From positions 21,578,001-21,642,000 of the forward strand of contig CM097885.1 in the NCBI GenBank assembly GCA_044892525.1: a stretch of DNA of 64,000 nt, in the 5' to 3' direction. This document shows, in pieces, positions 60,129 through 61,319 of this stretch (positions are counted from its first letter, which is position 1; each line of letters opens with the position of its first letter). Under the pieces are notes generated by a model. The model did not search any database, had not been told where the DNA came from, and was given only the letters and a program-made list of their open reading frames with translations. Source of the stretch: Schmidtea polychroa (Eukaryota). Made by a program: the position numbers and the translations under genes.

Positions 60129-60212
60129 AACCTTGATGGCGCAGTGGGCTAGACTGACACAGTGGTTCAAAATGCTAGCGGTTCAAATCACATCTGAGGT
60201 TAGTTTTTTTTT
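60129..60212 (+). ncRNA. Putative Pol III tRNA-like small RNA unit (right arm, inner copy)
   Basis: A box TGGCGCAGTGG (60137-60147), B box GGTTCAAATC (60180-60189), T9 run, terminal stem AACCTT/GAGGTT. Confidence 0.6.
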
Positions 60213-60342
60213 CAACATAAAATAATATTAAAAATTTGAAAATAATATTGAAAATAGTGTGGGTATCTTATATTTATAAAGTACTTGTATATTTTATTTT
60301 ATTTATTTTATTTTATTTTATTTTTTTTATAAATTAAAAATT

Positions 60343-61319
60343 AAAAAAATGACAAAAATTCAAACCTTGATGGCGCAGTGGGAATAGACTGGCACAGTGG
60401 TTCAAATGGATAGTGGTTCAAATCACATCTGAGGTTAGTTTTTTTTCAACATAAAATAATATTAAAAATTTGAAAATAATATTGAAAATAGTGTGGGTAT
60501 CTTATATTTATAAAGTACTTGTATATTTTATTTTATTTATTTTATTTTATTTTATTTTTTTATTAATTAATTATTTTTTAAACATAAATATGAAAAAAAA
60601 AATATTGAAACGGGTGTGGTGGCGAACCGGTAATTATCGCCACCAGTCTTTCGAACACACCCGGATCGATCCCATAATGTGCACATTTATTTCTCGGTTG
60701 TTTTCGGACCTCTTTCGGATTCGCTTTCGAATTCATTTGTACTTTCGAGCAGCACACTTAAAACGCCGATGAAATCGTATTCGAGCGAGAAGCGAATAAT
60801 AAGGTGTGCTGCTATTATCGAATTGATTCTGATTATGAGCCTGGCCAGCTTGTATATTGGAAGAGATTTGATAAACGAAAGAGGTTGAATAAAAAAAAAT
60901 GATCCGGATCAAAAAAACTGTTGAGAGGACAGTGAAAAAAAAAAATACCACTGTCCTCTCAGAGCAGTTTTACTATTTTCATAAAATTTTTTATTCTTCA
61001 AGACATCAAGATTAAGATTTCATTTATTTTTTTTAATTAGCCAATTAGCAACTTGCTAGTTGGCATTCTCAAGTAGCCTTCTAACTTTTTCATAATACCA
61101 TTTTCTTTTCTATTCTCTTTATGTTTTTAGTTTGAAGCTTTTGAGTTTGAGGCTTTAAAGATTAAAACAGTTAGAGTCATTAAGGGTGGTTGTTTTCAAA
61201 ATATAGGGTTAAAATACTATAAAAGTATAAGTTTTAGGTTGTTTTTCTAATAGCTTAAGTGATTTGGAGGCATGTTTTGTTGGGAGGGCTGTTTTGGTTG
61301 GGTATATAACCACACTACT
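60343..61319 (-). repeat. Right TIR, preceded by a ~235-bp tandem duplicate of its inner end (60110-60342)
   Basis: Reverse complement of the left TIR; 60113-60330 repeats at 60344-60560. Confidence 0.9.
60363..60446 (+). ncRNA. Putative Pol III tRNA-like small RNA unit (right arm, outer copy)
   Basis: A box TGGCGCAGTGG (60371-60381), B box GGTTCAAATC (60415-60424), T8 run. Confidence 0.6.

Follow-up and report, generated by a model that had tools for sequence, protein, structure and literature searches.

Promoter-only tRNA-like units on Polinton ends as a candidate variant of viral Pol III small-RNA loci

Adenoviruses and herpesviruses are known to counter host defences with small RNAs made by Pol III, and Polintons are integrating relatives of adenoviruses; the tRNA-miRNA chimeras of murine gammaherpesvirus 68 (MHV68) are named TMERs. 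Adenovirus VA RNAs are described as A/B-box-driven transcripts of ~160 nt that comprise an apical, a central and a terminal domain and for which a tRNA origin is proposed (PMC7589676). VA RNA I and II share with the units described here, termed u1, a type-2 internal A/B-box promoter, a U-run terminator and a place in a pPolB-type dsDNA virus, whereas u1 has a length of only ~75 nt and is unstructured, in contrast to the three stable domains of these RNAs. A second unit, u2, is nearer to VA RNA in size and folding than u1; it is a structured RNA candidate and has no match in Rfam, the VA family included. The MHV68 chimeras are reported to lie near a genome end and to consist of a tRNA-like part followed by hairpins (PMC4378190). 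They resemble the present locus as a tRNA-like Pol III cluster near an end, with u2 and its downstream hairpin recalling the tRNA part and hairpins; their tRNA part, however, is described as folding and being cut off by RNase Z, whereas u1 has no cloverleaf and ends immediately in a long T-run.

Genes of the tRNA type are also recorded on Polinton relatives: a PLV/virophage collection yielded 558 Rfam tRNA hits (PMC12220804), and the maps of MELD viruses flag predicted tRNA genes (PMC8502044). These are detectable and read in those accounts as codon compensation, whereas u1 fails both ARAGORN and Rfam and keeps only promoter and terminator. In S. pombe, IR-L/IR-R and tDNA barriers are described as TFIIIC sites in inverted repeats round a silenced domain (PMC7474672), an arrangement similar to that of u1. 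Unlike u1, which is a full A+B+T unit on a mobile virus-like element and one-sided in some lineages, IR-L/IR-R are host chromosomal and contain B boxes only. tRNA-derived SINEs share with u1 a head in which a degenerate tRNA still shows A and B boxes, but u1 is without body, tail or, in 60 loci, free copies. No description of Pol III, B-box, tRNA-like or VA-RNA units in Polintons or adintoviruses was found in the open-access literature, although supplements and repeat-database annotations could hold one. The feature may thus be a variant of viral Pol III small-RNA loci, here represented by promoter-only tRNA-like units on Polinton ends.

The Polinton and its u1 units

The window, i.e., the whole 64-kb stretch of DNA analysed, belongs to an AT-rich genome of 781 Mb with four large chromosomes, which would suit a planarian. 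It contains a complete element with the following parts:

46396..61319 (no strand): Polinton/Maverick element, 14,924 bp, AGTAGT...ACTACT ends
46390-46395 and 61320-61325: 6-bp target-site duplication (TSD) CTTGAC on both flanks of the Polinton
46396..47350 (no strand): left TIR, ~950 bp; full-length likeness to the right-TIR type 80-85%
60344..61319 (no strand): right TIR; directly ahead of it, its inner part is present once more in tandem (60108-60337; 234 bp)
47359..51741 (+): protein-primed family B DNA polymerase (pPolB), PF03175
56207..57007 (+): A32-like packaging ATPase, PF04665
57103..58481 (-): PLA2-like domain and rve integrase, two ORFs (57570-58481, 57103-57483), PF08398 and PF00665
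58511..59803 (-): major capsid protein, double jelly roll, PF21738 (E 3e-25); the unit cluster lies head to head with it
59890..60111 (+): 73-aa ORF without Pfam family, stopping right before u1

Long TIRs, AG/AGTAGT ends and a 6-bp TSD are hallmarks of Polintons/Mavericks, and all of them are present here together with the Polinton/Maverick (adintovirus-like) gene set recognized by Pfam, namely pPolB, rve integrase, packaging ATPase and double-jelly-roll capsid. Although this copy retains an unbroken 6-bp TSD, its left and right TIRs diverge far above expectation; there seems to be a mixing of TIR types among Polinton copies. A nested terminus-like motif lies inside the left TIR at 46639-46647. 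The integrase region (57103-58481, minus strand) is divided into two ORFs; since the sister families compared show a similar gap, this division could characterize the family rather than reflect decay. Elsewhere, the window holds a gypsy-like LTR retroelement remnant (protease, RT, rve; 29572-33882, plus strand) and rhodopsin-family GPCR ORFs (16361-17077 and 36128-36760). The u1 units are located at the inner edges of the TIRs:

60129..60212 (+): u1 copy R1; A box 60137-60147, incomplete GGTTCAAA 60164-60171, B box 60180-60189, T9 60204-60212
60363..60446 (+): u1 copy R2; A box 60371-60381, B box 60415-60424, T8 60439-60446
47239..47326 (-): u1 copy L1; A box 47318-47308, B box 47275-47266, T13 47251-47239

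All three were confirmed where a first-pass annotation of the sequence had placed them, with A box, B box and T8-T13 runs. The full B box of every copy is GGTTCAAATC, the distance from the A-box T to the B-box G is 44/45/44 nt and the T-run begins 14 nt past the B box, in both respects the geometry of tRNA genes. Finer points of that annotation held only in part: the leader ACCTTGA is found in both right copies, but the left copy has ACCTAGA; the AACCTT/GAGGTT end pairing is perfect in the two right copies and imperfect in the left one; and of two proposed B-box-like GGTTCAAA motifs the second is the full B box, whereas the first, which shares bases with another A-box-like motif, stops short of the final C. 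Copy R1 is an additional copy, owed to a 234-bp tandem duplication on the inner side of the right TIR, and the start of L1 and the pPolB ORF are 33 bp apart in head-to-head orientation. When the window was scanned for A box, B box and T-run, exactly three matches were obtained, i.e., the three u1 copies, against 0.015 per window in 200 shuffles. This is the layout of a type-2 Pol III gene (internal A and B boxes at tRNA-like spacing, with a T-run shortly past the B box), as had been proposed, and it is a fixed part of this Polinton family. ARAGORN called no tRNA in u1, even at a lowered threshold, Rfam gave no match at E<=10, and no cloverleaf with anticodon and T arms emerged from ARAGORN, Rfam or folding, in agreement with the annotation's remark that a proper anticodon arm is missing. 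A fourth, longer and strongly folded unit, u2, lies just downstream of u1 in both TIRs and had been missed.

Exact matches to the u1 core pattern number 2,478 across the genome, against none for the reversed pattern used as a control; strongly diverged free relatives would escape such a count. The best 30 DNA matches, one of them the window itself, all lie in Polinton ends (30/30), as do the first 30 matches in position order (30/30, in 28 distinct ends). Since all 60 examined loci are in Polinton ends, u1 is not a free SINE, and none of these loci showed a dispersed free copy that has a body, a tail and a TSD of its own. Thus, the notion of an abundant free host SINE, which the annotation had itself raised, fails for u1 (0/60 loci outside Polinton context), but related tRNA-like units do exist in the host rDNA spacer (see below). 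Copies of u1 have been gained in tandem, and mostly one or two are present per Polinton end.

The boxes are spared recurrent change. Among 107 distinct-context copies, variants recurring in at least three copies occupy 1/21 box columns vs 22/56 others (Fisher p 0.004, which is optimistic because the columns are not independent and variants travel as few haplotypes), bearing out the earlier observation that the boxes are kept while neighbouring bases vary. The sole recurrent box variant is G/A at the second A-box position, allowed by both boxes, and the B box is invariant for recurrent change. Private changes are similar by class (11 in the 21 box columns vs 37 in the 56 others), and a T-run of at least 7 is present in 82/83 units. 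The folding z of the window copies is 0.26, -0.57 and 0.00, and that of the 14 commonest of 42 haplotypes ranges from -0.88 to +0.78. A 5'/3' closing stem of -6.8 kcal/mol occurs in the two commonest haplotypes (33/96 contexts) and is missing in one subfamily, the E134-type haplotypes. As the boxes are spared and the fold is not conserved, it seems that selection bears more on promoter and terminator than on the shape of the RNA. The first, incomplete GGTTCAAA likewise has no recurrent variants, so that constraint extends beyond the boxes, for which a role as promoter alone does not account.

The u1 units are tRNA-like and likely tRNA-derived. They resemble all three host tRNAs compared (Trp, Lys and Arg) as well as the spacer units, with z 2.3-7.3. 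Among these tRNAs, Trp is the best fit to R1 (46 identities, z 5.3), Lys or the spacer unit ub fits other copies better than Trp, and one subfamily is nearer to ub than to Trp, Lys or Arg tRNA. A comparison of u1 with the host rDNA spacer gave no close match, the longest shared word being 13 nt, which indicates that u1 has diverged far; no homology was found between the u1 spacer and the tRNA-array and rDNA spacers. The host tRNA and 7SL genes themselves are arranged in long single-type tandem arrays (L061-L095, L262-L267), with periods of 424 bp for Lys, 278 bp for Arg, 284 bp for Trp (865 pattern matches) and 593 bp for 7SL.

The structured unit u2 and its downstream hairpin

Downstream of u1, both TIRs carry u2, and a hairpin follows it on the right:

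60612..60890 (+): u2, structured RNA candidate, z -5.63, with a homologue in run X5
60620-60630, 60664-60672 and 60701-60704: A-box-like and B-box-like parts of u2 (44-nt spacing) and T4
60708-60717 / 60876-60885: helix closing the main domain of u2, ~180 nt with three arms
46806..47088 (-): left-TIR copy of u2, z -4.57
60900..60973 (+): 12-bp palindrome (60900-60911) and long hairpin with A-rich loop, then T4 runs

In 89 copies, the A-like box is kept in 84/89, the B-like box in 83/89 and T4 in 86/89; the A-like box fails the strict pattern, and T4 precedes the main domain. All 30 u2 matches taken in position order are Polinton-linked (30/30). The fold is stronger on the outward strand (-94.5 vs -72.8 kcal/mol), and 99.4% of cells are paired in six helices (37 of 64 haplotypes), which is modest evidence given that two weak helices were excluded beforehand and the haplotypes are 94% identical. 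Common variants swap G-U, A-U and G-C pairs, one pair being changed on both sides. The hairpin stretch (60900-60975) has z -7.14, and a pair within it alternates between G-C in 43 copies and A-T in 23.

Further support comes from run X5, labelled as another organism, whose contigs cover u2 (~85-92% identity in the ungapped stretches) as well as a portion of the capsid gene (~83% identity). Among 13 listed u2 substitutions in X5, five are unpaired, seven keep a pair and one breaks a weak helix; one of the pair-keeping changes is a double change from A-U to G-C, and for the five single changes all to keep pairs the chance is 0.002-0.019 with the weak helix set aside. The u2 fold is stable, strand-specific and kept through substitutions, with one fully compensatory pair in the genome and one in X5. 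Run X7 shows three u2 differences, all of them also variants in X1, and is therefore not independent. Contigs of run X1 cover u1 and u2 with a depth figure far above that of the capsid gene or outer TIR, a lead only, as contig depth cannot rank parts and the run type is guessed; in run X13, depth falls mainly on low-complexity stretches. Contigs of X5 and X7 do not cover u1, which does not speak for its absence there, and none of the sequencing runs that contain these sequences is recorded as RNA. A derivation of u2 from 7SL/SRP was tried and rejected, its score against host 7SL being below the shuffle mean. Judged by these features, u2 is a better VA/TMER-like candidate than u1 and the likelier of the two to be a virus-style small RNA.

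A cassette shared with the host rDNA spacer and the sister Polinton families

Many Polinton right ends have in addition a ~500-bp cassette with two further outward-pointing tRNA-like units, ua and ub, positioned between the capsid start and the 73-aa ORF:

59820..59864 (+): ua/ub cassette site, filled in many sister copies, empty in the window copy

The units u1, ua and ub are unrelated in detail, cluster at a single place and share an outward orientation. Of the cassette matches, 20/30 best and 7/30 position-ordered ones lie outside Polintons, and the non-Polinton contig examined proved to be 45S rDNA with the cassette antisense in the intergenic spacer. There, it belongs to a three-unit array, uc-ua-ub, with ~240-bp spacing. 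The host 45S rDNA repeat thus carries, at a 12,562-bp period, three tRNA-like A/B-box units antisense to rRNA (L268:4086-4660, minus strand, contig C296), and a literature search found no description of such units in rDNA spacers. The unit uc has 718 genome matches, with Polinton sequence in 0/30 loci examined. The 49 Polinton-borne spacer segments are 85-98% identical to the rDNA spacer (median 95.9%) and fall mainly into two end-point classes (35 and 10); none of the 49 segments reaches uc. Capture of ua and ub from the rDNA spacer by Polintons is likely, being the simpler reading, with its direction set by parsimony only. Dispersed rDNA-spacer fragments are also found on chromosome C1 (L232-L234, L238-L241), one with ub amplified in tandem at a 243-bp period; further spacer fragments on this chromosome are cut inside ub and fused to another repeat.

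Of 20 capsid loci from the Pfam search, 8 matched the end region of the window Polinton. When ten elements of other families were extended, E134 and E150 were found to hold u1, u2, the hairpin, ua and ub once, as a cluster between the capsid gene and a short TIR, and no A+B unit was seen in E143, E144 and E147, in which both TIRs were covered. Among short-TIR ends taken in position order, the units are present in 2/24, both on the capsid side, and missing from 22/24. As sister Polintons have integrated without it, the unit module is accessory, and as the short-TIR sister family has it on one side only or not at all, the units need not bracket genes. The family with units has ~3,061 u2 matches vs 104 short-TIR matches, a contrast of one family with one family that constitutes no test.

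Several Polinton families (L131-L171, L300-L323) share capsids of 87-91% amino acid identity with polymerases of only ~50-62%; capsids being far more alike than polymerases, capsid-module exchange among families is indicated. The short TIRs of these families are themselves hairpin-like. IMG/VR contained neither a capsid relative nor a match to the u1 pattern; a single 18-mer match, with no capsid or TIR similarity, was taken as chance. No A+B unit was seen in 35 metagenome loci with distant capsids (22-60% identity), which say little because they are distant, mostly short and 87 kb in total.

Possible action of the units in cis or in trans

The preferred explanation, which we give about an even chance, is that u1 units act in cis via TFIIIC/Pol III loading and not through RNA shape, in keeping with units that retain both boxes and the T-run while keeping no RNA fold. 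TFIIIC, TFIIIB and Pol III would load on each unit, and a ~75-nt oligo-U-ended RNA would be made largely as a by-product. Between the terminus and the pPolB or capsid gene that faces the units head to head, the bound machinery could hold the DNA open against silencing guided by small RNAs, and it might also aid transcription of the neighbouring u2; ua and ub, entering the same stretch from the rDNA spacer, would have added such sites. In this regard, Polintons are reported as direct piRNA/H3K9me3 targets in a planarian (PMC8532177), which bears on the present element if its host is a planarian too, and B-box/TFIIIC sites are described as showing barrier effects (PMC7474672). Against a cis role stand the constrained sequence outside the boxes, the short-TIR ends mostly without units and the window copy without ua/ub.

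Alternatively, the ~75-nt u1 RNA could itself function in trans, by mimicking a tRNA or decoying proteins such as La, RNase P/Z, Dicer or PIWI, which is the VA-RNA idea of the first-pass annotation. Such an RNA would have ~2,500 or more templates with promoter and terminator complete, the -6.8 kcal/mol closing stem in the two commonest haplotypes, partly invariant sequence outside the boxes and X1 contigs over u1. However, each of the 14 folded haplotypes has a z near 0, the E134-type haplotypes have no closing stem and both the T arm and the anticodon arm are missing. PKR is not known from outside vertebrates and the host appears to be an invertebrate, which also counts against this idea. With a fold that is neither stable nor conserved, half the VA RNA length and an absence of the three domains described for that RNA (PMC7589676), u1 is a poor VA-RNA analogue; the decoy claim is not supported, and a role in trans is unlikely. 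Only slightly less doubtful is a neutral relic, i.e., spacer or tRNA-array fragments gained by chance that hitch-hiked with a successful family and spread by TIR copying. The 85-98% identity of ua/ub to the rDNA spacer, their loss from the window copy and the integration of sister families without units would all fit such a history, but u1 has diverged far and still keeps both boxes, spacing and T-run, recurrent change is spared in the box columns and the cassette has spread to a second family (2/24 ends; E134, E150).

The units could also form a TFIIIC-only, ETC-like insulator pair that brackets the viral genes, without transcription, in the way that IR-L/IR-R enclose the mating-type domain of fission yeast. 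B boxes in inverted repeats are described elsewhere as binding TFIIIC without Pol III (PMC7474672), and the invariant B box and the inverted placement at both ends of the main family conform to this. The A box, tRNA spacing and long T-run are kept as well, though B-box-only sites need none of them, and ua/ub and the short-TIR cassette are on the capsid side only; the bracketing insulator suggested in the annotation is weakened accordingly, with one side or none in the sister family, and we consider a TFIIIC-only pair quite improbable. Insertion of a free host SINE into the TIR, for which the tRNA-like head and thousands of matches might speak, is already largely refuted and very improbable: 0/60 loci are free of Polinton context, T8-T13 directly after the head leaves no room for body or tail, and no duplication was seen flanking u1.

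Beyond a cis role of u1, a wider and distinctly tentative proposal is that animal Polintons carry their own Pol III small-RNA locus. It would comprise promoter-only tRNA look-alikes, partly rDNA-spacer captures swapped between families, and a VA/TMER-like u2 that might counter piRNA/RNAi silencing, helping the family to reach ~thirty times the sister copy number. Having in one genome a high-copy family with the module and a low-copy family mostly without it would make Polinton escape from piRNA silencing via Pol III directly testable. Additionally, the identifiable host source for part of the module may offer a live example of VA-like genes arising from tRNA-like host DNA.
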